Shown: positions 3,226-47,004, numbered from the stretch's first letter. The stretch: 64,000 nucleotides of DNA from an uncultured virus (IMG/VR IMGVR_UViG_3300035698_029539) (IMGVR_UViG_3300035698_029539); one strand, 5' to 3'. The notes: generated from the sequence alone by a model not told the origin. Program-made: numbers and translations.

Positions 3226-3756
3226 TTAAAAGTTTTTCAAAACTTTGTATATCTCGCCGTATTTCATACAAGCAACTATCGCAGAACACGAATCAAATTG
3301 ATGTTCGCTTTCAACTTTGGTCTTGCTGAAAACATCCCCACCAAATCTATCTAAAATTGCCTGTTTCACCAAATCCTTAGAACCGTTTCTATTGCCCGTT
3401 GCTGCCTTTTTGCACTCATTGGGTGTAAAGTACTCAGCAGGATAATCCACAACCGTCAAGATACCACCCAATAGCCCTGTCGCCATTCCCATGCACCTGT
3501 TTGGTCTCGCACCCTGTGCGCCACCATGAGGTAATTCAACAGCGACCAATCCCCTATATTTCCGTAGAAAACCAATTATTCCAACCGACATCTCTTTACA
3601 ACGTCGCAAATCATCGTCAGCAATTCTCAAGCTCTTTTTCTTCTTGTCTTTCTGAGTCCTAATCGTTATGGCCTCAACCAATTCACCAGACTCAATATCC
3701 ATCACCGCAAGCCCAGTCGCCGCAAAACCGATATCAATACCAATAACGTATTTCAT
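3226..3756 (-). CDS. ruvC: RuvC-like Holliday junction resolvase
   Basis: VIGIDIGFAATGLAV, AVELP, KKAATGNRNGSKD, HQFDSCSA match the RuvC D/E/D catalytic layout. Confidence 0.85.
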   Translation of the reverse strand: MKYVIGIDIGFAATGLAVMDIESGELVEAITIRTQKDKKKKSLRIADDDLRRCKEMSVGIIGFLRKYRGLVAVELPHGGAQGARPNRCMGMATGLLGGILTVVDYPAEYFTPNECKKAATGNRNGSKDLVKQAILDRFGGDVFSKTKVESEHQFDSCSAIVACMKYGEIYKVLKNF

Positions 3757-7389: not shown

Positions 7390-7565
7390 TTAACCATCAT
7401 AAATACCGATATCGGAAATCCTATAAAAATAAACGTCGTAACCCATGTCGAAACAAGCCATATATCCCATACTATTGCAAGTAAATTAAAAACGGCAAGA
7501 AATAAGGATGTTAAAATGAATATTGTCAGCCCAAGCTTTCCCTGCCATTTCCAGCCCTTAAGCAT
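7365..7565 (-). CDS. Small two-TM membrane protein
   Basis: Two hydrophobic stretches; TAATG coupling to upstream gene. Confidence 0.6.
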   Translation of the reverse strand: MLKGWKWQGKLGLTIFILTSLFLAVFNLLAIVWDIWLVSTWVTTFIFIGFPISVFMMVKWGLKCIK

Positions 7566-8779
7566 TAAAATACCCCTATCTTTCCTTCCATTAATAATAA
7601 TTTAATATTTCCTATATTATGTAAACCATCGTATACTATAGCCTCAATTAAAGACCTATTGAAATCCTTAGAATCATCTACCATATTTATCTGTATATGA
7701 GCTATAGATGGCTCGTCAATAGGTGAGCCTATCTTTGATACTATCCTTACAAATACCTCAGCTATATTATCATCAGCTTTATAAATTGTTTCGGCCATCT
7801 GTTTTGATAACAAATTATATGATTTCCCAACATGAGTTTCAGGATTTTTACCAGCGCAAGCCTCCATCGACATCGGCCTCATCGGAGTAATCAATCCATT
7901 ACACCTATTACCCCGACCAACACTGCCATCATCACCATTCTCCATCGAAAGACCCGATACCGTCAAATAACACGAATCCTCAGTATCAGCAGTATTTACA
8001 TTGACTATTAGCTTATGCGGCATATCCGTATCCAAACAAGTTCGAGCGATAATGACAACTTCCGCATGTATAGCTTCCCTGTAATGCTCATAATCACCCC
8101 TATCTTTGATATGCTTGGAAATCATTGCAACGGCCACAGTCAAATTTATTGTATCCTCGTTTCTAAATCCCATTATCTTTATATCCCGACCTATCGCTGG
8201 AATCTTTTTTCTAATTACATCACTATTCAGATGTGTTTCCACATCATATACCATTTGTTCCAACTCACTAAACGGAGCATATCCAGCACCAAATGACGTA
8301 TCATTAGCCCTGACTATTTCCTTTCCCTCAAAATTTGATTGCAAATCCATTGAGCCTTCACCAATACCAGTCTCCAGCATTATATCCTTGTCAAAATTCA
8401 AATCCTTAAAGTTGACTCTCAGATACTCCTCAGCAGCTTTCAAAGCTATTTCTCGTACTGGAATTATATTCTCATCCACATATTGAGTAGCCCGGCCAAC
8501 CAATATTATTCTGATAGGCTTCGTAATTTCGCCGCCGCCAAACTCAGGAGCCGACTGACCAGCAATTATCTGAACCTCATCCGTATTGTGATGAAGTACA
8601 CGACCAAAGTCAGCATAATAACGCTTTGATAATGCAACAGAAACAGACTCAGCCAACCCGTCCGCAATGGAATCAGGATGCCCAAAACCCTTTCTCTCAA
8701 CAATTTCAATCGGTTGCTTGTCCAGTATCAAACTGTCTATTTTTTCAATAAATACATTTTCCATGTCATTCGCTCCCAA
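7565..8779 (-). CDS. mat: Archaeal-type S-adenosylmethionine synthetase
   Basis: [59 protein letters not shown] are hallmark archaeal MAT motifs. Confidence 0.95.
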
Positions 8780-9931: not shown

Positions 9932-9960
9932 TTTTCGCTACACCTTTTTCTAAAAGGTGT
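9932..9960. terminator. Palindromic hairpin element at gene 3' end
   Basis: TTTTCGCT followed by ACACCTTTT-tct-AAAAGGTGT. Confidence 0.6.
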
Positions 9961-10268
9961 TATCCAAACATCGCATCCATTACATCCACATCATTTTTTT
10001 TGGGTGAATCCTCAGAAACGCTACTATCTCCTGTTTCCAAAATTACATCATCAGGATTTTCTTTGGCATATCTGACAGCAGCAATAAATACCGACCGAAT
10101 TAAAAAACTTAGACCATCCTGTATCTCTTTATTCATACCCTCTATTTTACCCCGAATATAATGGAAGTGAGCCGCAGAAATACCATAGGATTCTAAATGT
10201 TGTCCCAGAATGTCATCTATCGTTTTACCCTTGATTACAACTGTCAACGGTCTCTCAATTTCGTCCAT
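9960..10268 (-). CDS. Hypothetical protein ending in AMFG
   Basis: 102-aa ORF with own TATA box (~10303). Confidence 0.7.
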   Translation of the reverse strand: MDEIERPLTVVIKGKTIDDILGQHLESYGISAAHFHYIRGKIEGMNKEIQDGLSFLIRSVFIAAVRYAKENPDDVILETGDSSVSEDSPKKNDVDVMDAMFG

Positions 10269-10320
10269 CTTTGTGCCTCAATAATCATAATCTTGTAAAT
10301 TATATTTAAAGATTATTGTC

Positions 10321-15515: not shown

Positions 15516-15551
15516 GAAGTTCGGCTCTCACCGAACTTCTCAAGGCGAAAA
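15516..15551 (-). terminator. Hairpin after the 15558 gene
   Basis: GAAGTTCGG-ctctca-CCGAACTTC, T-tract downstream on minus strand, GGCGAAAA flank. Confidence 0.65.
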
Positions 15552-16529: not shown

Positions 16530-16846
16530 TTTTTATACCTCCCCTGATTCTCGGCTCCACGATAACCTAATCATATCATCGCCGTATTCAAGGTAAAAAG
16601 CTCAATATTGAAATCATTTATAAATCTTGCTATCTATACCTTTTCTCAATCCTTTTTCACTATTTAATATATAAAAGTAACCTATTACTCATTGCTAATT
16701 GCACCTAAAATAATACTGTATAATACGTTATACAAACTGTATAAAAATTAATGTTATATTTTAAATGATGTATAATGCGAAATGTTATATTTATGTAATT
16801 TTATTGAGAAAAAGGAATGTTTATAAGCTCCCAATTTTTATAGGTA

Positions 16847-16898
16847 GTACCTTTTTCAAAAAAAGGTACGGCGAAAAAAAAAGATGGCAAAAACCACC
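16847..16898. terminator. Palindromic hairpin element at gene 3' end
   Basis: GTACCTTTTT-caa-AAAAAGGTAC followed by GGCGAAAA and GGCAAAAACCACC. Confidence 0.6.
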
Positions 16899-16901
16899 AG
16901 A

Positions 16902-18251
16902 TTATTCTCGTTGTTCTATCCTGCCACCGACACTTATCCTAAAAATTACCATCGAACTCAAATCATCCTGAATAATATATCTAAGTTTATCCAAATCCTC
17001 AGATTTCAATATCTCTGGACTTGCGAATCTCGATTCAATAGTTATTAGTGTATTTGTTCCGTCATACATTCCATTTGATATTTCTACTTCAGGAAATTGT
17101 AGCCAATCTTTTATGCCTGTGGCCGTAACACTTAATCGAACCTCATCCCCCTGCACACGTTGATATATTAGTCCGTTGGCCAGCGTCACTCCCAATATAT
17201 CATCATAGGATAGGCCATACATCGTACCATCAGCTATCGTAGAATTATATGAAGCCCCCACTATTATTTTTAGTGTTTCAACATGAAACCATGTTCCTGT
17301 ATCTGGTTCCATTATATATATAATAGAAGCACCCGTCTCTTCGACCTGCATTAAATCAATCCAAAAATTATTACCCTTGTGTGTATTCAATAATCTAAAC
17401 CCATCCAAAATTGCCAATGTCAATCCCATATCAACAAGAGGTATGGCAAATTTCAACCAAGTGTTCTGTAAACCAGTATCAACGTAATCATTTATATTTA
17501 CCCTATTTCCAACCTGAGTACCACCCACGTCCCATCCATAAAACTCCAAGTCCTCATTATTCTTCCATTTTGTTACAAAGATATATCCCGTTATGGCAAC
17601 GTAATTCGATAAATCTATATTCACTCCTCTATCAAATTGGGCAACATTATTAGCATCAGTCGCCGTAGCATCTATTGATTGTGCTGAACTCGTAAGATTT
17701 ACAGCATCACTCGTAGTTATTGCAGTTATATCATTACCCCTATCAATAACAACAGTAACAACTGCACCACTCGCACTCGCACTTACTCCAGCCAAGCCAT
17801 CAATGGCTACTGCCAAAGCTGTTGCCGTTGCAGGATTTGAAACCGCCGCAGCCCAATCAATACCCTCAGTAAGAATCGTTGGAACGCCATTTATCGTAAT
17901 TGTAAGCGTATCACCAGCAAGTAACGCAAAATTCACAACCTCTGCAACCGCATCAGCAGCATGAGTATCAGCGTCAACAAAATCCCATTTGGCACCGCCA
18001 ACTATCGCACTCGGAGTCCATTGAACCTTATCCCCACCATCATAAATTCCGTCTGGTGTACCACCAAATCCCGCCTCCTGATTCATATCAACCCCATAAA
18101 TATCATTCGAAAAAAATTCAACGCCACTCGTATAACTTTTCAATTGCCTCGTTGCGACTACCAATGCCTGTTTTTCACCACTGGTCGCATCAACTTCGGC
18201 ACTCTTGCCCGTACCACTATCCGTTATACTATTCTTCAACATCAGCCTCAC
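16902..18251 (-). CDS. Putative virion/tail protein, Ala/Thr-rich, with a possible carbohydrate-binding-like segment
   Basis: GDTLTITING...ATATALAVAID pattern typical of tail/sheath-type repeats; NTWLKFAIPL..FWIDLMQV. Confidence 0.55.
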   Translation of the reverse strand: MRLMLKNSITDSGTGKSAEVDATSGEKQALVVATRQLKSYTSGVEFFSNDIYGVDMNQEAGFGGTPDGIYDGGDKVQWTPSAIVGGAKWDFVDADTHAADAVAEVVNFALLAGDTLTITINGVPTILTEGIDWAAAVSNPATATALAVAIDGLAGVSASASGAVVTVVIDRGNDITAITTSDAVNLTSSAQSIDATATDANNVAQFDRGVNIDLSNYVAITGYIFVTKWKNNEDLEFYGWDVGGTQVGNRVNINDYVDTGLQNTWLKFAIPLVDMGLTLAILDGFRLLNTHKGNNFWIDLMQVEETGASIIYIMEPDTGTWFHVETLKIIVGASYNSTIADGTMYGLSYDDILGVTLANGLIYQRVQGDEVRLSVTATGIKDWLQFPEVEISNGMYDGTNTLITIESRFASPEILKSEDLDKLRYIIQDDLSSMVIFRISVGGRIEQRE

Positions 18252-18920: not shown

Positions 18921-19859
18921 TTATGAGATTTTTGCCACGGACAATTCATCAACACTCATCTTTTTACTGATGCCTAAACTCTCAATGTCCCTATACCTAT
19001 TCCGTATAGTTACCTCAGTCACCGATGCAACTTGGCTTATATCCTTCTGTGTCCGCTTTTCATGGTTGATTTGACACGACATATAAATACTCGCCGCAGT
19101 CATACCCAAAGGACCACCCTTGATAAGCCTCGCCTCTTCACATTTTTTCAGAATTTTCTTGGCAGTGTCGCAAGTAATATTCGCTAAATGTAACTCAGAA
19201 CAAAACCTGTCAACATAATTTTCTGCCGTGGAAGGCTGATAAAATAAATTTAAAGATGAAGCCATAAATCTATAAACTCGACCAATATCCTTTTTACTAA
19301 TTCTCGTATGCCGAGCTATTTCATCCAAAGTCCTCGGTACAGAATTGGAACGACAAGCAGCGTAAATACTTCCAGCGACAACCGCTATTATACTTCTGCC
19401 CCTGATGAGATTCTTTTTTACCGCCTTACGATATATCATACACGCACTTTCACGAATCAATCTCGGTAATCCTAACTTACTGGATATCTTGTCAATCTCC
19501 GTAAAAGCATAAGTCAAATTACGCTCAGTCGCATTGGATATCCTTATTCTCCTCTGCCATTTCCTGAGCCTGTGTATTCGACCCTTATCTCCCCTAATAA
19601 TTCCACCAGCACCATCCCTATTCCCATATGAAATTTCAGTTGATAACCCCTTGTCATGTAACATTATATTACTTTTCGAACCAATATGAGACTTCTGCTT
19701 TGCATCTTCACTATCATATATTCTGTATTCTGGATGCTCAAAATCAATACATCCATCTTCTATTACAACACCACAATCAGAACAATAATATTCTGCCCTA
19801 TCAGAATCCTTAATCACTTTGGTGCAAGCACAATCAGGACACACCATTGTTTCAGTCAT
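18921..19859 (-). CDS. tfb: Archaeal transcription initiation factor IIB
   Basis: Zn ribbon CPDC/CSDC, PEYR, HDKGLSTEI, RLRKWQRR, ERNL, IRGRS, PRTLDEI, TQKDI..VTEVTIRNRY. Confidence 0.96.
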   Translation of the reverse strand: MTETMVCPDCACTKVIKDSDRAEYYCSDCGVVIEDGCIDFEHPEYRIYDSEDAKQKSHIGSKSNIMLHDKGLSTEISYGNRDGAGGIIRGDKGRIHRLRKWQRRIRISNATERNLTYAFTEIDKISSKLGLPRLIRESACMIYRKAVKKNLIRGRSIIAVVAGSIYAACRSNSVPRTLDEIARHTRISKKDIGRVYRFMASSLNLFYQPSTAENYVDRFCSELHLANITCDTAKKILKKCEEARLIKGGPLGMTAASIYMSCQINHEKRTQKDISQVASVTEVTIRNRYRDIESLGISKKMSVDELSVAKIS

Positions 19860-21340: not shown

Positions 21341-22012
21341 TTAATATGTAAATTTTATTTTTTCATGCTGTGGATAAGTCGGACCACAAGTAGTATATAT
21401 TTTCCCCTTTGATTCCCATTTCGCCTGTAGCTTTTCTTGATTTTCTTTGAGCTGCCCATCCCCCGCAGAAGCACCATGCGACTCGTGATATATACCTATG
21501 TTAGTAACATATGAAGTCAATCCAAGCTCAGTAATCGCAATGGAATAATCACATCCATAACAATGCCATCCGTCAAAAGTTTTCTCGTCAAATTTTATTT
21601 TATCAAAAACAACCTTCGGAGTAACCAAAATCAGTTCATCTATTGTCTGCACAGGCAAAAGCTTCGCATTGAAATTGTAACTCTGATTACAAACACCACA
21701 ATAAATTTTATGTGGAGTCGCACCAGCACAGCCTACCGCACCGATGGATTTGTTAGCCCTCAGAATAGTATACATATCATCAAGCCATCCAAATATATGT
21801 AATCTAATATCCTGATGAGCGAATATCAAATATTCGCCTTTTGCACGAGCCGCACCAAAATTCAAAGCAGATGATGCAGATTTGAAATAATTTTTTCGAT
21901 TGTCTATAAATATTGTTTCAAAATCCTGACAAGTCTGCTGCTTCAGAGTAGAGCCAAGCCATTCAGTAAGAATATCCAAATCGTTGAATACGCAAATAAT
22001 ACTGAATTTCAT
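21341..22012 (-). CDS. GT2-like glycosyltransferase
   Basis: FSIICVFN, LNFGA..AKGEYLIFAHQDI, FDGWHCYGCDYS. Confidence 0.85.
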   Translation of the reverse strand: MKFSIICVFNDLDILTEWLGSTLKQQTCQDFETIFIDNRKNYFKSASSALNFGAARAKGEYLIFAHQDIRLHIFGWLDDMYTILRANKSIGAVGCAGATPHKIYCGVCNQSYNFNAKLLPVQTIDELILVTPKVVFDKIKFDEKTFDGWHCYGCDYSIAITELGLTSYVTNIGIYHESHGASAGDGQLKENQEKLQAKWESKGKIYTTCGPTYPQHEKIKFTY

Positions 22013-22077: not shown

Positions 22078-23043
22078 CTAAGGAGTCCACAAAAAAGCAC
22101 GATTATTAATCCATTTCGCAACTTCTTCCACATTATATCTGTCATCAACCCATAACCAACCAGTAAGACGAATCCAATTTTTCTTGGTATCTTCAAGCTC
22201 AATAAATGTTTTGCCCCTCGGCGTATCCTTCCATTCACCATCATTAGGCAAAACTAAAAATGATACTTTTCTAATATTAAAAATACCCTGCCATTTTTCA
22301 GGCTTCAGTAATTTCATTTCCCTAATCATAAGACCATAACCACTCCCCGGCTCATCCTTCCAATTGCCATCGCTTCTCTTCCTAAACCATAAATCATCTT
22401 CCAATTTATAATCAACCACTTGCCAACTCTTTGGAGCTATCACCCAATACCTATTATTTCTAAAATATACATCAGAATTTTTATAACCCAATTTTCGCAA
22501 TTTTTGATTTTCTTCATGCGCAGGCTCTTTATGCTCATAACTCCTTCGAATTGTTCCAGACAAAGAAAGACCTATGATAATTTTATTCGGATTTTTAGCA
22601 ATATCCTTCTCCCACTCATGAACAGCACCAGTCAAAGTATCTATATCAAGAAAACCATAACGGTTTTTACTCCTAAAAACCGTGGGAAAAACCCGCCCCG
22701 AAGATGAGCCAAATTTTTGAATCGGTGGTTTAGACAACACATCATATTTCCAAAGATTTGCCAATACCTTCTGCCAACTATCCTGCTTCAAAGAAATACG
22801 ATTATCAGCAACATTTCCATATTGTACATCATCCCATTTCATAGGCTCCCAGCCCATCATCCTCATCACAAATATTCTAAATTCGTTTGGGATTCTATTA
22901 CCACCTGAATAATCTTTTACCAACAATACAATATAAGGTCTCTTGCCCGTTCGGCTTTTGGTACGTCGAAAACCCGCCCACCCGTTGAAACAGACCCATA
23001 CTTCTCTTGACCAACTTTGTATTTGTAATATATATACTTCCAA
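22078..23043 (-). CDS. C-terminal part of the modular polyprotein-like gene (-1 frame)
   Basis: Contains the same GRVFPTVFxxKNRYGFLDI linker as the upstream giant ORF and overlaps it. Confidence 0.7.
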   Translation of the reverse strand: MEVYILQIQSWSREVWVCFNGWAGFRRTKSRTGKRPYIVLLVKDYSGGNRIPNEFRIFVMRMMGWEPMKWDDVQYGNVADNRISLKQDSWQKVLANLWKYDVLSKPPIQKFGSSSGRVFPTVFRSKNRYGFLDIDTLTGAVHEWEKDIAKNPNKIIIGLSLSGTIRRSYEHKEPAHEENQKLRKLGYKNSDVYFRNNRYWVIAPKSWQVVDYKLEDDLWFRKRSDGNWKDEPGSGYGLMIREMKLLKPEKWQGIFNIRKVSFLVLPNDGEWKDTPRGKTFIELEDTKKNWIRLTGWLWVDDRYNVEEVAKWINNRAFLWTP

Positions 23044-26000
23044 AACGCATCAAGGTCATCTTTCTCACCCCTTGGCGAACCACCAGCCAATCCAACCCTG
23101 AATCGTGGACCCATCTTGTTTTTTATAATTCCCTTAGAAGTCAAATTGCGTCTTAATGTTGAAACCACAGTAAATCCACTATTTGCCCTGTATGCTTCGA
23201 GGTCTACGTCATATTTCACCGACTCCCAACCACCCTTTTCAGTCGCATCAGCATCCAATTCCTTTCCCATTTCCATAATCATCTCTTCAACCGTTTTTTC
23301 TTCCCGAAATTTGGATATGTCTAAAAAACCATAACGAGTACCCTTTAAAAAAGGGTACGGCCCAAATTTATTGACCCGCCCCGATGAATACTTTTTAGAA
23401 TCTTTCCCGTGCCAATCCTTCCAATCCAAACTTTTACTGTAATTTCTCATTACTGTCTTGATGTCCTTTCCTTTACTAAATGCATCCTTAAGCTCAGCCT
23501 CGAAAAAACCCGTATTAAATTTCGAATGCGGAAGCGGTAAAAAATTTGATAGAGCTTCTGGAATATTCTTATGATTCCAAGCCGAAACCGTAATTTCCCC
23601 CTCCTCTCTGAAAACACCAACATAATGCTTATTTCCAAACACATCATCAGCCATAATAACCTGAGATTCAGGTTTAAAATCCATTTTGGATATATCCAAG
23701 AATCCAAATTTTTGTTTTCCACTAAAATAATAATTTTTAACCTCTTTGTGATTGAAATGACCAGCTTTCATTCGACCGTATGGAGTACTAAGCGACGTTT
23801 TATCCCTTATTAGAATATCATTATTCTTCATTAATATCATCGCATAGTATTTTGACTTCTTTTTTCCCTTCATTTTTGCCTTTATAAAAGCAATCTTATC
23901 GCCCCACGGACTGCTAACATTCGCCTTAGACAACTTCTCCTCAGCAACACGCACATTATCATTTTCACTCATATATATATTATAATCATCCGTTCCCCAT
24001 TCATTCTTAAAATCAACGACTTTCACATCAACAAATTCTGACTTCTTAACAAATCCTGCCTTTTTATTGCCCTTATCCCATATCTCACAATTGATATTCG
24101 GAGGTTTTTCAAGCAAATTCGCTTTACTTATATCCAAAAATGAATACTTTTTAGAATCTCTTTTTAAATGACCGACATTAGACGCAACTTTATCAAAAAA
24201 CTCATTAGATGAAACCGTCACATACACATCAGTACCCTCAAGCTTCTCAAAATACTTATTACCATCCATTGACAAACCATAAGCACCGCCCTCTAATACA
24301 ACCATATCCCCCGCCTGCAATTCTTTCGGTCCATCATCGAATTTATACCCAACCCTACTAATGTTCGATATTATTTCCTTTGTTTTTTCTATAATATCGT
24401 CTGTACTCGTTAATCGATGCAATGTTATCATCCTACCAATCACCGACTCAATCTCCGCATATGAATACCAGTTCTCCCAAAAACAAAAATCCCCACTATG
24501 AATAAGTTTTATATCCCTTTCGGCAGGAATAGGCACATTGGCTATATCCAAAAATCCATAACGGTTTTTCGGTCCAAAAACCGTGGGAAAAACCCCACCC
24601 GTTGCTCCATATTTTTCACTGGAATGCTTTTCAACAAGTCCATCTTTTTTTGGGTCAAAGCCTTTTTTAAAGGCTTTTCGTACCATCTCCCAAAGAGCCT
24701 TCACAGCCTGGTTTCTCGCCCCATTATAATAAGCGTCCACGCCTTCCACCTTATCATCGTCTATTCTTACCCACCATCTCCAGCCACGCTTACCAACCGT
24801 ATCAACGCCCGTATCAACCATTTTCATACTCTCTTTTTTCAATGCCTCTTTCGTAAATATGGTCAATTCACCTTTTACTCCCTGAGAATTAAATCTATCA
24901 ACCATCGTTTCCTTTAATAATTTTAAACCCTCAAAATAATCTATGCCCCTGATGGCATACCAAGTTCTCGAACCTTCAGGCCGAAAACAGAGATAGTACC
25001 TTTTTCTAAAAGGTTTATCGGGAACCCACCCCGTCTCAGAAGAATAATATTTTACTTGTGAAATTTTGGTCTTTTTATATAAAATATTGTTATCATTCAA
25101 TGTTTGCAATACCTTTTCCAAGTCCAAATCTGAAGCAATTGTCAAAAAATAATTGCCTTTAATCTCCCCTCCTCCTATATAATCCCCATAGCCAAATTTA
25201 TCATATAATATAGCCGTCGCCTTATTGAATATCGAAAAATTACCATAAAGAGGTATTGTTATTTTCAATGGAAATTTATCTTTTCCAGTATACAATTTTA
25301 TAGGCGTTTTATCTTTAGACTTCAAAATAGCATTAGTCGATAGTAAAATAAATTCATTAAACGCTTGTTCTGAAATGCTATACCAATACCCTTCATATTC
25401 AAAGAAATAACGGTCGCTATATATAAAAATAGGAATCTTGATATCATCAATATAAATAAATCCTTCCTTCGCCCCTTCAGCACTCACAAGCCAAGGCTTG
25501 CCAGGTCTTTTATTGACATCTATACTCTTAATCACTTTGTCAGAGCCAGGCAACGAAAATAATTTTTTTATTTTTCTTTTGGGTAATAAATTTGCTTTGG
25601 AAATGTCTAAAAAAGAATAACGGTTTCTCGTTCCATCTTTTTTTGGGTCATAGGCTATTTGCCCCGAATATTTTACAGCATAAGGCTTTTCATAGCTCAT
25701 GCCATTATCCCCCATTAGCTTCAATACTCGCTTCAAATCTGGGGTATCTATTTCTAAATCAAATCTTGTAACCGTTCCCTGTGGGAATTTTATATTCTCA
25801 ATTCCAGCGGCATTTAAAAAAACAAATATTTTAGATGTGTTTGTATTAACAAGAGGTATTGTTGTCCTCGATGGAAATTTTTCTTTTCCAGTATACAATT
25901 CGATATTTTTCGATTTTAAAATAGTATCCACTGACATAATCAAAAAATTTTGCAACGCATTCAATTCAATATTATACCAATTCCCCTCATATTTAAAAAC

Positions 26001-26274
26001 AAATCGGTCAAATAAACCCCTATCATCAACCGCTATAAAGAATTGAGTTCTTTCACCATTTAAAAAAATAACTACATTTTTAATTATATTTCCATCCTTC
26101 ATTTGCACCGCCAGAGGAAATTCTCTCTCCCAATACACCGGAACACTTCTTATTCCAAAACCAATCTCCGGAATCAAATATAATTTTCGTATGTGAGATT
26201 CTATCTTTAAATTAGAAATGTCTAAAAACCCATAACGGTTTTTCGTTCCAAAAACCGTGGCAAAAACCCGCCCC
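22660..26274. repeat. Intragenic palindromic repeat family at domain boundaries
   Basis: Hairpins at 22660-22683, 23338-23358, 24561-24584, 24658-24676, 24998-25014 and 26235-26258; most are followed on + by a GG-A-tract-CCCGCCC/CCCACCC-type flank. Confidence 0.85.
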
Positions 26275-26639
26275 GTATCATCTTTTTTGACACTCTGCAA
26301 ATCCCAAATCTTTTTAAATTTGTCTTTATAAATTTCGACATTCCCAAAAACGGCCATCGAATTAGTTTTTTTAAGACTTTTCTCCCACGTTATTTCTTTA
26401 TTTGAAAAGTCAGCATATGCGCTATCTGACATCCATTCCAATTCTTTCAAATCGTATAAATTCACAGAAAAAACTACTGGTAGAGGCTCATGCCCCAATT
26501 CTTCATCACTCACTGCACTTTCAAACGCATATTTTTTTGCCTCGTCCAAATCATCACTCAATGAAAGTAATGTTTCATCTTTGTTTATGTCATGCCAACG
26601 AAGTTCAGTTGTACCATGATATAATTTTAGATTGGACAT
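22917..26639 (-). CDS. Large modular (polyvalent-type) protein with N-terminal ART-like domain and repeated linkers
   Basis: ATG 26639 is 25 nt below TTTATATA; LYHGT..LSDDLDEAKKYA; six [KR][YF][GS]FLDI motifs separate domains. Confidence 0.85.
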   Translation of the reverse strand: MSNLKLYHGTTELRWHDINKDETLLSLSDDLDEAKKYAFESAVSDEELGHEPLPVVFSVNLYDLKELEWMSDSAYADFSNKEITWEKSLKKTNSMAVFGNVEIYKDKFKKIWDLQSVKKDDTGRVFATVFGTKNRYGFLDISNLKIESHIRKLYLIPEIGFGIRSVPVYWEREFPLAVQMKDGNIIKNVVIFLNGERTQFFIAVDDRGLFDRFVFKYEGNWYNIELNALQNFLIMSVDTILKSKNIELYTGKEKFPSRTTIPLVNTNTSKIFVFLNAAGIENIKFPQGTVTRFDLEIDTPDLKRVLKLMGDNGMSYEKPYAVKYSGQIAYDPKKDGTRNRYSFLDISKANLLPKRKIKKLFSLPGSDKVIKSIDVNKRPGKPWLVSAEGAKEGFIYIDDIKIPIFIYSDRYFFEYEGYWYSISEQAFNEFILLSTNAILKSKDKTPIKLYTGKDKFPLKITIPLYGNFSIFNKATAILYDKFGYGDYIGGGEIKGNYFLTIASDLDLEKVLQTLNDNNILYKKTKISQVKYYSSETGWVPDKPFRKRYYLCFRPEGSRTWYAIRGIDYFEGLKLLKETMVDRFNSQGVKGELTIFTKEALKKESMKMVDTGVDTVGKRGWRWWVRIDDDKVEGVDAYYNGARNQAVKALWEMVRKAFKKGFDPKKDGLVEKHSSEKYGATGGVFPTVFGPKNRYGFLDIANVPIPAERDIKLIHSGDFCFWENWYSYAEIESVIGRMITLHRLTSTDDIIEKTKEIISNISRVGYKFDDGPKELQAGDMVVLEGGAYGLSMDGNKYFEKLEGTDVYVTVSSNEFFDKVASNVGHLKRDSKKYSFLDISKANLLEKPPNINCEIWDKGNKKAGFVKKSEFVDVKVVDFKNEWGTDDYNIYMSENDNVRVAEEKLSKANVSSPWGDKIAFIKAKMKGKKKSKYYAMILMKNNDILIRDKTSLSTPYGRMKAGHFNHKEVKNYYFSGKQKFGFLDISKMDFKPESQVIMADDVFGNKHYVGVFREEGEITVSAWNHKNIPEALSNFLPLPHSKFNTGFFEAELKDAFSKGKDIKTVMRNYSKSLDWKDWHGKDSKKYSSGRVNKFGPYPFLKGTRYGFLDISKFREEKTVEEMIMEMGKELDADATEKGGWESVKYDVDLEAYRANSGFTVVSTLRRNLTSKGIIKNKMGPRFRVGLAGGSPRGEKDDLDAFWKYIYYKYKVGQEKYGSVSTGGRVFDVPKAERARDLILYCW

Positions 26640-26661
26640 GCTTTTATAAACCACAGTAAAA

Positions 26662-45777: not shown

Positions 45778-46518
45778 ATGAAATGGCTGATTGTTGGGGA
45801 TGTTCATGGCAAACTGAAAGCGTTTAATTATGCTTTAAATCATACAAAGTTAGATTATGATTTAGTCATACAGTTGGGTGATTTTGGATTCTGGAAAAGC
45901 TGTCTTTTGCACAGTCATAAAAAATTTAAAGAGATGTGTAAAAAACCTATTTTCTTTGTGAGAGGAAACCATGAGGAATATTCTCGGCGACATGAACCTT
46001 TTTTTGACGATTATGAAAATGTGATAGCTCCGATATATTTTAAGGATTGTGACTATATTCCAAGGCACATTAACGATGAGATGATTGACATAGGCGGTCT
46101 AAGCGTTTTAGGCGTTGGTGGTGCGTTTTCGATAGATAGGTCATACCGTAAGCTGGATGAATCGTGGTGGCGACAGGAGATGGTTAATGCGGCTAATGTT
46201 GAACGTATCATACATGAGAGATTAAGACCTGATATAATACTTAGTCATGATGGTCCTCATCAATTTTTCAAGGCGTATAAAAGACCTCAATTGGATGTTA
46301 TGACTGATAATTTTTATGGAAAGCCAGGCGATGCGCAATTAACATTATTATATAATCATATAAAACCGAGATATTGGTTTTTTGGTCATCATCACAAACT
46401 GATGAGGTGGACTGATAAGGAAAGCGGTACGCATTTTATTGCTTTTCCTATCCATGATGAACAGATAGGGATATTTGATACAGAATTTATGGATTTGGAA
46501 ATTACTCCTTGGTGGTAA
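45778..46518 (+). CDS. Calcineurin-like metallophosphoesterase
   Basis: GDVHG, GDFG, GNHE, SHD, GHHH. Confidence 0.92.
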   Translation: MKWLIVGDVHGKLKAFNYALNHTKLDYDLVIQLGDFGFWKSCLLHSHKKFKEMCKKPIFFVRGNHEEYSRRHEPFFDDYENVIAPIYFKDCDYIPRHINDEMIDIGGLSVLGVGGAFSIDRSYRKLDESWWRQEMVNAANVERIIHERLRPDIILSHDGPHQFFKAYKRPQLDVMTDNFYGKPGDAQLTLLYNHIKPRYWFFGHHHKLMRWTDKESGTHFIAFPIHDEQIGIFDTEFMDLEITPWW

Positions 46519-46554
46519 ATAGTTTTACTCCAAAAACTATGGCAAAACCACCCG
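46519..46554. terminator. Palindromic hairpin element between convergent genes
   Basis: ATAGTTTT-actcca-AAAACTAT followed by GGCAAAACCACCCG. Confidence 0.65.
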
Positions 46555-47004
46555 TCAATCCAAACACGAAGCAACAAGCCAACTAACAAATAGAAATACA
46601 ATAACACCTATAAAAAAACACCAAAAAGAACCAGAGGATTCATCTTCCTCTACCATTATAGGTCTCTCAATTTCCTTATCATTGTATCTTATTAATATAT
46701 GAACTATATCAGCATCTATGACACGCAACTCAATTAAAATAGAATCCATCAATTTGGTAATAGATGCATCAGATTGCTTCTCATCAAACAGTTCAAATAC
46801 AGTAAAATTATCAACAGAATTTCGAACAGCTATTTCCAATTCAATATCCGTAACATCTACATCAACTTCCAACATAACGTAAATAGTCGTTCCATCCTCA
46901 TCAGCCGTCCGTACTTCGTGATATTCTGCGCCATATGCACTTACGTTTGGCATCAAAATTATTGCCGACATTATAAATATAATAATAAATATATTCTTTT
47001 TCAT
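46555..47004 (-). CDS. Exported SPFH-like domain protein with C-terminal TM (paralog 1)
   Basis: Signal peptide, AVRNSVDNFTVFELFD core, C-terminal TM. Confidence 0.75.
   Translation of the reverse strand: MKKNIFIIIFIMSAIILMPNVSAYGAEYHEVRTADEDGTTIYVMLEVDVDVTDIELEIAVRNSVDNFTVFELFDEKQSDASITKLMDSILIELRVIDADIVHILIRYNDKEIERPIMVEEDESSGSFWCFFIGVIVFLFVSWLVASCLD

Follow-up and report, generated by a model that had tools for sequence, protein, structure and literature searches.

We describe here a set of DNA hairpins at the domain boundaries of a multi-module gene on the minus strand of IMGVR_UViG_3300035698_029539, a 64,000-nucleotide (nt) stretch recorded in IMG/VR as an uncultured virus and referred to below as the window. 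The gene spans 4.6 kb and joins about ten modules through linkers of the form K[YF][GS]-FLDIS. On balance we favor, with modest confidence, the explanation that a dispersed, terminator-like hairpin repeat, similar to REP (repetitive extragenic palindromic) elements and Rickettsia palindromic elements (RPE), has copies in this gene that are translated in frame, and that the hairpins are these copies. At least five units of this repeat are in frame and stop-free within the gene, and it is the pairing of their arms, not the peptide they encode, that is maintained.

The nine junctions of the gene (c1 to c9) were read codon by codon and fall into five groups. Three of them, c1, c4 and c9, carry a near-identical 46-nt unit with a mean column identity of 92%, laid out as a G-box (CGGGGYGGG), a T5 tract, [GC]CCA and a 9-base-pair (bp) hairpin, ACGGTTTTT-N6-AAAAACCGT. 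All features of the gene are on the minus strand. The unit of c1 (26233-26278) comprises the G-box, T5, GCCA and a hairpin at 26235-26258, and it translates as TGRVFATVFGTKNR ahead of YGFLDIS. That of c4 (24559-24604, hairpin 24561-24584) is flanked by a perfect 6-nt direct repeat, TATGGA, and that of c9 (22658-22703, hairpin 22660-22683) lies in a second open reading frame (ORF) that overlaps the main one. A covariance model trained on c1, c4 and c9 only (R1) scored the three at 71.2, 70.6 and 70.2 bits, respectively. At c7 (23336-23386; R1 11.8 bits, E 0.17), the G-box TCGGGGCGGG and a spacer accompany a different perfect stem, GTACCCTTT-ttt-AAAGGGTAC (23338-23358), which encodes YPFLKGT. 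At c3 (24997-25036; R1 10.9 bits, E 0.33), the G-box is ACGGGGTGGG, the stem is ACCTTTT-aga-AAAAGGT, and RYYLCF follows instead of FLDIS. The remaining junctions hold less of the unit or none. The half unit of c2 (25620-25634) retains the loop and the 3' arm (GGAACGAGAAACCGT) without the G-box and the 5' arm, and it aligns with c1 across a clean 30-nt gap; c8 (22940-22985) is degenerate, with a G-box at 22969-22980 and no clean hairpin. The short forms c5 (24129-24149, KKYS-FLDIS) and c6 (23691-23711, KFG-FLDIS) have no unit, and the 20 nt upstream of c5 are identical to those of c7 (repeat family D15), c5 being without the 57-nt insert of c7. The units of c1, c3, c4, c7 and c9 are all in frame and stop-free, and such units add 13-19 residues to the linker (TVFGxKNR, YPFLKGT, KPFRKR). 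One more perfect hairpin, AAAGCCTTT-N3-AAAGGCTTT (24657-24677), lies 25 codons upstream of c4 and encodes KAFKKGF.

An earlier, sequence-only reading of this DNA had placed hairpins just before the RYGFLDI codons. This is true in the coding direction, with the correction that the gene is on the minus strand. The stems it had listed are present: ACGGTTTTT-N6-AAAAACCGT in the three 46-nt copies, GTACCCTTT-aaa-AAAGGGTAC at 23338-23358, AAAGCCTTT-ttt-AAAGGCTTT at 24657-24677 and ACCTTTT-tct-AAAAGGT at about 24998-25014. The patches it had seen shared between junctions are real as well, those at 23384 and 24140 being 20 nt long and 100% identical (D15) and those at 24639 and 25632 being 29 nt long and 90% identical (repeat family D7). 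The FLDI codons (TTTTTRGAYATW) were considered as a former TATA box and the idea was rejected, there being no start codon at a suitable distance.

The proposal that the stems are a feature of the nucleotides rather than a by-product of the peptide was borne out by synonymous shuffles, by invariant stem columns and by the retention of rare codons. Perfect stems of at least 9 bp account for 16 hairpin entries (14 distinct) in the window, versus a mean of 4.0 entries in 30 Markov shuffles, and 5 of the 14 distinct hairpins fall in the multi-module gene. When the 60 nt before each junction were subjected to 1000 synonymous-codon shuffles, with c3 left uncounted because this interval excluded its hairpin, the observed folding energy was attained in 0 shuffles for c1, 2 for c7, 6 for c9 and 73 for c4; the short junctions c2, c5 and c6 were unremarkable. 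The three 46-nt copies vary at 11 columns, all of them among the 28 outside the stem; the 18 stem columns are invariant (hypergeometric P 0.0016; with the three leading flank columns dropped, 0.0075). In c1, c4 and c9 alike, the stem is written with the codons ACG, AAC and CGT, while gene-wide AAC serves for 13 of 85 Asn codons and CGT for 13 of 76 Arg codons. Beside the stems, four of the six YGFLDI codons differ between copies. Behind the same G-box, the corresponding positions of c7 and c3 hold different stems that encode different peptides, so the peptide is not the conserved feature.

These results bear on the simplest alternative, namely that TVF..KNR happens to use complementary codons, so that the palindromes are due to chance or to the peptide and the copies are alike by descent. 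The three near-identical (type-1) copies clearly do share descent, and AT-rich DNA abounds in palindromes of T and A runs. Such an origin is nevertheless exceedingly improbable in view of the different stems at the same place in c7 and c3, the rare codons retained, the conservation of stems beside saturated flanks and, outside the gene, a non-coding copy with compensatory changes.

This non-coding copy is found at 46517-46557 on the minus strand, the same strand as the copies in the gene (R1 21.2 bits, E 2.5e-4). It reads tga-CGGGTGG-TTTT-GCCA-TAGTTTT-TGGAGT-AAAACTA, sharing the G-box, T-tract, GCCA and loop with the gene's units, and it starts at the stop codon of ORF 46555-47004. Its stem, ATAGTTTT/AAAACTAT, departs from the stem of the gene by compensatory changes on both sides. 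In a 4.4-Mb archaeal genome used as a control, the best R1 score was 16.2 bits among the 150 of 207 first-look candidates that were scored. The 36-nt gap (46519-46554) between the convergent ORFs 45778-46518 (plus strand) and 46555-47004 (minus strand) is wholly occupied by the unit, and the G-box of this copy can also pair with a downstream ACCACC to form a longer, two-tier hairpin.

Altogether, the window contains four clear copies at R1 E ≤ 0.001, three of them in frame inside the gene, plus weaker look-alikes. The region past the stop of ORF 16902-18251 (16845-16903, minus strand) has a TGGTGGTTTTTGCCA box, a T9 tract and the hairpin GTACCTTTTT-N3-AAAAAGGTAC at 16847-16869 (R1 7.3 bits, E 4), which resembles c7 by eye, flank included (GTACC...GGTAC-GGC). 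Directly past the stop of the small ORF 9960-10277, a hairpin at 9940-9960 (minus strand) has 16 identical nt (CCTTTTAGAAAAAGGT) and a GATAA lead-in in common with c3. The post-stop hairpin GAAGTTCGG-N6-CCGAACTTC at 15516-15539 (minus strand), with TTTTTCGCC before it and T7 after it, looks like a terminator by its sequence. When the 3' flanks of all minus-strand ORFs were listed, few stable hairpins were seen outside the gene, and these (9940, 15516, 16847 and 46519) sit past stop codons; the copies and look-alikes at 46517, 16847, 15516 and 9940 are all within 45 nt after the stop. The stems of the gene are thus akin to terminator-like hairpins past stop codons in the same window, in agreement with the relation to terminators that the sequence-only reading had suspected. 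In an alignment of the 11 best R1 matches, 96.5% of the cells pair and six of the nine main-helix pairs change on both sides. The covariation score of this alignment was reached in 0 of 500 shuffles, a result biased towards pairing because the alignment was fitted to the structure and three of its rows are the reverse strand of palindromes. No Rfam family reached its gathering threshold in the region or in the window, where the rows returned were at chance level. A weak R1 match at 3227-3262 (13.4 bits, E 0.058) runs through the final 12 codons of ORF 3226-3756 as far as the stop; this ORF has a faint RuvC-like NCBIfam match (22 bits versus a cut-off of 163).

Metagenomes provided a second view of the unit. 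Nine salt-lake runs contain part of the stretch, and four of the nine were compared as Logan contigs, whose depth is summed over organisms. The depth of bin 26100-26263 in the four runs was 14.4, 11.1, 19.8 and 18.2 versus 0.6-5.7 in adjoining bins, that of bin 22656-22819 was 13.3, 4.1, 9.0 and 7.2 versus 0.2-5.4 alongside, and the hairpin at 24657-24677 reached 19.4 in run X1. At the edges of units, contigs leave into unrelated sequence. For c1 (26233-26241 and 26276-26277) this was seen in all four runs, and further loose ends at unit edges occur at 24647, 24675-24678, 23337 and 22699-22706. Beyond one loose end, the contig goes on as a similar junction in frame (KFLPSSGRV...), and another loose end has a GAGGTGA-N6-ATG start region past half a unit, both as read from a 30-letter consensus string. 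In two runs, a pair of units is joined head to head, 22701 with 26275 on opposite strands. There is good evidence, then, that the unit exists in other sequence contexts; together with the R1 match outside the gene, it upholds the earlier description of the hairpins as REP-like, insofar as the term means membership in a dispersed family of palindromic repeats. A CRISPR repeat was rejected as a candidate, as unique sequence extends beyond the loose ends over a median of about 255 nt and not over spacer-sized intervals.

The same contigs hint at module polymorphism. The joint 22668-CGT-24639, present in runs X1 and X3 (two of the four), passes in frame from the frame of the first ORF into that of the second (...VRKAFKKGFDPKKDG-TKNRYGFLDIDTLTGAVHEW...), although its shorter side is 31 nt at an 88% likeness threshold and it was flagged as unreliable. 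It links the tail before c4 to the head after c9 (...KGFDPKKDG-TKNRYGFLDID...) and skips five modules and a break in the reading frame. The joints 25579/24148 and 22699/24649 were out of frame on reconstruction and were therefore treated as repeat copies in other contexts. The module shuffling at junctions that the sequence-only reading had suggested is accordingly hinted at by one in-frame contig form, the two other reconstructed joints being out of frame.

The repeat is a two-hairpin unit: its small first hairpin is made up of the G-box, a T-loop and [GC]CC, and its second is a T/A-run hairpin with variable outer pairs. In this DNA it usually stands right after a stop codon and in the sense orientation, and there it looks like a terminator or another 3'-end element. 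In the multi-module gene, copies are found in the flexible K[YF][GS]...RYG-FLDIS linkers that connect mutually unrelated modules, where the identity of the added residues is likely of little importance. By analogy with RPE and REP-type repeats, copies most likely entered these permissive linkers, or were refreshed in them, through copy-and-paste or gene conversion from family members, and only those in frame and stop-free would have survived. The complementarity of the arms might be kept by selection on pairing, by arm-to-arm correction or by both. Decay by deletion could have produced the half unit of c2 and the absence of a unit from c5 and c6, with c8 as a degenerate remnant. The near-identical junctions of 46-84 nt could supply homology for the loss, gain or exchange of modules, and the three sense-strand T5 tracts of each unit may cause some internal termination.

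If this explanation is correct, an uncultured archaeon carries and translates its terminator-like repeats within a reading frame, at most domain boundaries of one mosaic protein. The Rickettsia idea of selfish DNA in coding sequence would extend to archaea and to the linkers of multi-module proteins, and near-identical boundary patches of 46-84 nt would be a physical basis for domain shuffling. For annotation, the lesson is that conserved "motifs" such as GRVFPTVFGxKNR can be read-through repeat DNA and not functional peptide. We can also envision an in-frame cassette system with the units as its working joints, in which polyvalent-type modules are lost, gained and reordered by recombination in a population with many module combinations. 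The units might then double as internal transcription stops, and the in-frame M3-to-M9 junction in the metagenomes would be one such variant. We regard this more active role as unlikely, and only a demonstration that the junctions actively exchange modules or act as internal stops would make them of high interest.

Several points weigh against the dispersed-repeat explanation. Only one intergenic copy is statistically clear, the others having E values of 0.058 to 4, and the census of the family covers one 64-kb window and metagenome contigs that sum all organisms. No evident target-site duplication was found at the intergenic copies. The TATGGA repeats at c4 overlap the KYG/RYG peptide motif, so deletion fits as well as insertion. 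The three type-1 copies may be alike merely through youth, which would explain their identity without structural selection. A Pfam scan of 64 window proteins yielded no integrase, transposase, RAYT or HUH family, and no relative of the full gene was found in any collection searched. Lastly, every unit marks the C-terminal end of a module, the place expected for a stop codon, and is oriented like the post-stop copies, an arrangement that fits equally well with an origin of the linkers by gene fusion.

According to this fusion scenario, the modules were once separate neighboring genes with units past their stops, and they were fused when point mutations or frame changes removed the stops, so that former 3' elements are now linkers. 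The unit at 46517-46557 begins at the stop itself and, one frame over, would read TGGFAIVFGVK. An out-of-frame TAA occurs in c3 in a GATAA context, as does the stop before the 9940 hairpin; the gene truly stops and restarts at c8; and the modules are unrelated save for one paralogous pair. On the other hand, no start codon or ribosome-binding site is found past the junction of any module, and six in-frame, stop-free fusions would amount to six separate lucky events. FLDIS follows seven junctions with unrelated modules and is present at the unit-free short junctions too, which makes the linker look older than, or independent of, the unit. We consider a fusion origin, the main rival explanation, rather unlikely.

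The terminator-like composition of the units raises the question of a present function in RNA. Hairpins with U-tracts could pause or partly terminate transcription, or pause ribosomes, at module boundaries, and could in this way adjust how much short product is made relative to long product, or help domains to fold. Each full unit contains three sense-strand T5 tracts within about 45 nt, and the gene has 29 tracts of T5 or longer, or 6.3 per kb, versus 3.7 per kb on that strand of the window; T5 tracts are, however, common within the genes of this AT-rich window. All four full-length R1 matches at E ≤ 0.001 are in the sense orientation, but three of them are the training copies, and that strand carries 64 of the 74 ORFs. 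At 16847, the small first hairpin depends on G-U pairs, which can form in RNA of that strand alone. Archaeal terminators are reported to depend on U-tracts (PMC8716108). Against it, four of the nine junctions are without an intact hairpin (none in c5, c6 and c8, half a unit in c2), so hairpins are not required at every boundary, and truncated messages would be without stop codons. We find working RNA signals quite unlikely.

The sequence-only reading had further raised attC-like sites through which modules are captured or shuffled, and had seen no recombinase in the window. A site-specific enzyme, either of the integron type or an HUH nuclease, would then insert, excise and reorder module cassettes at dedicated sites. 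Three observations could be cited for this: the in-frame contig form joining the c4 tail to the c9 head in two of the four runs, the exact patches of 18-20 nt common to junctions, and the head-to-head dimer elsewhere in the metagenomes. The joined form has a junction sequence of its own and is thus not a simple excision product; it also depends on the 31-nt side at 88% likeness and its flag, and the two other reconstructed joints are out of frame. The Pfam scan of the 64 window proteins agrees with the earlier impression that no recombinase is visible in the window, since no integrase, transposase or HUH family was detected. Integron attC sites have paired core sites, R''/L'' and L'/R', with a GTTRRRY-type consensus. 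The units here resemble them in that unrelated modules are arrayed with a hairpin-forming site at each 3' edge, but the units are translated in frame within one ORF and do not lie between promoterless cassettes. The 3' end of the unit reads AAAAACCGTTATGG, with no attC-type core on either strand by inspection against that consensus, and no IntI-type recombinase is among the 64 proteins, so the comparison with attC fails. Homologous recombination between repeats of 46-84 nt would be enough, and dedicated recombination sites are very unlikely.

The dispersed-repeat explanation that we prefer can be compared with several known systems. REPs are extragenic by definition and are accompanied by a RAYT gene, which encodes an HUH enzyme of the Y1 class. 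The family here is like REPs and REPINs in its short, probably multi-copy, imperfect palindromes and in the head-to-head pair hinted at in the metagenomes, and unlike them in that three of its four clear copies are genic and in frame and that no RAYT is found among the window proteins. REP/REPIN elements and RAYT are both named in the accessible part of PMC3184786. In-frame palindromic repeats have been documented as RPE (Ogata et al. 2000, 2002, as covered in the available text of PMC10969869). From that text, the likeness lies in a palindromic repeat that is dispersed over intergenic sites and over in-frame sites inside ORFs, where the extra peptide is tolerated; here, the in-frame, stop-free copies at c1, c3, c4, c7 and c9 and the same repeat outside genes at 46517-46557 match this description. 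RPEs as described there differ in being about 100-150 bp long, bacterial and spread across unrelated housekeeping genes, as opposed to 46 nt and archaeal here. Moreover, at least six copies are concentrated in the linkers of one multi-module gene and the intergenic relatives are right at stop codons. With no Rfam threshold match in the region or window and an archaeal organism, the repeat does not belong to a described RPE family.

SPRITE, a pneumococcal repeat, is described in the accessible part of PMC3049150 as a dispersed, terminator-like repeat near the 3' ends of coding sequences and enriched between convergent genes. The unit here is likewise small, terminator-shaped and near such 3' ends, with the 46517-46557 copy between convergent ORFs, and hairpins with T/U-rich tracts occupy such positions at 46517, 16847, 15516 and 9940. 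In both cases there is no clear target-site duplication and no identified mobilizing enzyme, as far as the accessible text of that source goes. The SPRITE of that text is an 18-bp duplex with a long U-rich tail and is not described there as occurring in frame inside genes. The unit here, in contrast, is made of two short hairpins with T-tracts inside and before the stems.

Mobile inserts that are skipped by translational bypass are exemplified by T4 gene 60 and by the "byp" elements of yeast mitochondria. The junctions share with them a short, hairpin-forming insert in coding sequence and, at c4, matching codons (TAT GGA ... TAT GGA). The matched codons are perfect in only one of the four long junctions (c4), and with every unit in frame and without stops, bypass would be superfluous.

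The gene as a whole may resemble polyvalent proteins, given its multi-module chain and the relatives of its N-terminal domain in chains with ADP-ribosyltransferase (ART) domains of the ART-PolyVal type, even though nine of its modules are orphans. Polyvalent proteins combine many unrelated modules per polypeptide with strong mosaicism in phages and conjugative elements (Iyer et al. 2017, in the available part of PMC5512222). The gene here differs in its archaeal setting among glycosylation genes, in which no phage or plasmid marker was seen, and in having no peptidase domain. Within that available part of PMC5512222, linker repeats and boundary hairpins are not mentioned, and the word "linker" occurs 0 times in the paper. 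From the nearest described repeats (RPE, SPRITE and REP), the present case is set apart by the archaeal source, the very short unit and the presence of copies at most domain boundaries of one mosaic protein. A limited full-text literature search, which did not extend to archaeal REP-like repeats under other names, returned no prior description of such an arrangement.

The main ORF of the gene (22917-26654, minus strand) encodes P0001 with 1245 residues, for which the true start is probably the ATG at residue 6. The second ORF (22078-23043, minus strand), in the -1 frame relative to the first, encodes P0002 with 321 residues, contains c9 and the last module, and probably represents the 3' portion of this gene, either broken off or separate. 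The motif [RK][YF][GS]FLDI occurs seven times in the 64-kb window, each time within this gene. The reading frame breaks at the degenerate junction c8, with the stop TAA at 22917-22919, about 40 nt past c8. The break was found unchanged in an independent metagenome contig (L001), which is identical across it, and two Logan contigs (22671-23207 and 22963-23306) span it without differences. Because it is present in an independent contig, the break is real and not an assembly slip of the window. For the split at 22917-23043, a pseudogene break and a true boundary between genes are both candidates, the latter with a 260-residue product beginning MMGWEP on record. A third candidate would be a frameshift at CCAAAAG in c8; programmed -1 shifting there was dropped, since the heptamer is not canonical.

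The modules are mutually unrelated except for one pair of paralogues (repeat family D4). These are the adjacent modules after c1 and c2, which share a 55-nt patch with 87% identity (25248-25302 versus 25851-25905) and in which the peptides FKYEGNWYNIELNALQNF and FEYEGYWYSISEQAFNEF correspond. This patch indicates that tandem duplication made at least one module pair.

Relatives were found for the N-terminal module alone, nine of the approximately ten modules being orphans. P0001 had no match in Pfam, PHROG, PADLOC or NCBIfam, and a near-range search for protein homologues of the gene gave none. A phmmer search against 1.8 billion representatives gave 28 matches, all confined to residues 4-121. 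The N-terminal domain (26307-26627, minus strand; residues 10-116) is the sole part of the protein with relatives, two of which bear PF18760 ART-PolyVal elsewhere in the chain. Its AlphaFold2 (AF2) model with 23 sequences had a predicted local distance difference test (pLDDT) score of 90.8, and Foldseek ranked Tpt1/KptA and ART toxins best for it (E 0.018-0.13), no row reaching E ≤ 0.001. These data are weak evidence for a predicted fold like that of ADP-ribosyltransferases. A PDB sequence search with the profile of this domain returned nothing meaningful, and the protein atlas gave one lead at 0.79, which is under its noise level. A profile of the junction peptide had no candidate at near range and, at longer range, only the window's own 260-residue product. 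Searches of genome contigs and viral contigs gave no match to the gene region, and that of metagenome contigs gave two identical fragments only (L001). The single-sequence AF2 model of residues 1-1200 had a mean pLDDT of 30.9 and was unusable. The only part of it near pLDDT 50 is the module after c3 (RYYLCFRPEGSRTWYAIRG..., 24990-25010, residues about 553-607), which is predicted as strand-strand-helix-strand, with two hydrophobic Y-motifs that loosely recall GIY-YIG.

The window is archaeal DNA with a G+C content of 35.5%, as indicated by TFIIB (18921-19859) and an archaeal AdoMet synthetase (7565-8779). No viral contig matched, scans for tRNA and Rfam families returned none, and a search with the AdoMet synthetase returned a single Asgard metagenome-assembled genome at 42% identity. 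The window could be part of a small-genome archaeon or of a large extrachromosomal element. Of its 74 ORFs of at least 100 residues, 64 are on the minus strand and most are without a Pfam family. In addition to TFIIB and AdoMet synthetase, the window genes include those for CYTH, PAPS reductase, APS kinase, two UDP-GlcNAc 2-epimerases and several glycosyltransferases, and the neighbors of the multi-module gene are glycosylation and sulfation genes. In the neighboring glycosyltransferase ORF 21341-22012, contig L001 (position about 1644) and the window (about 21828) differ by one extra T in a T-run.

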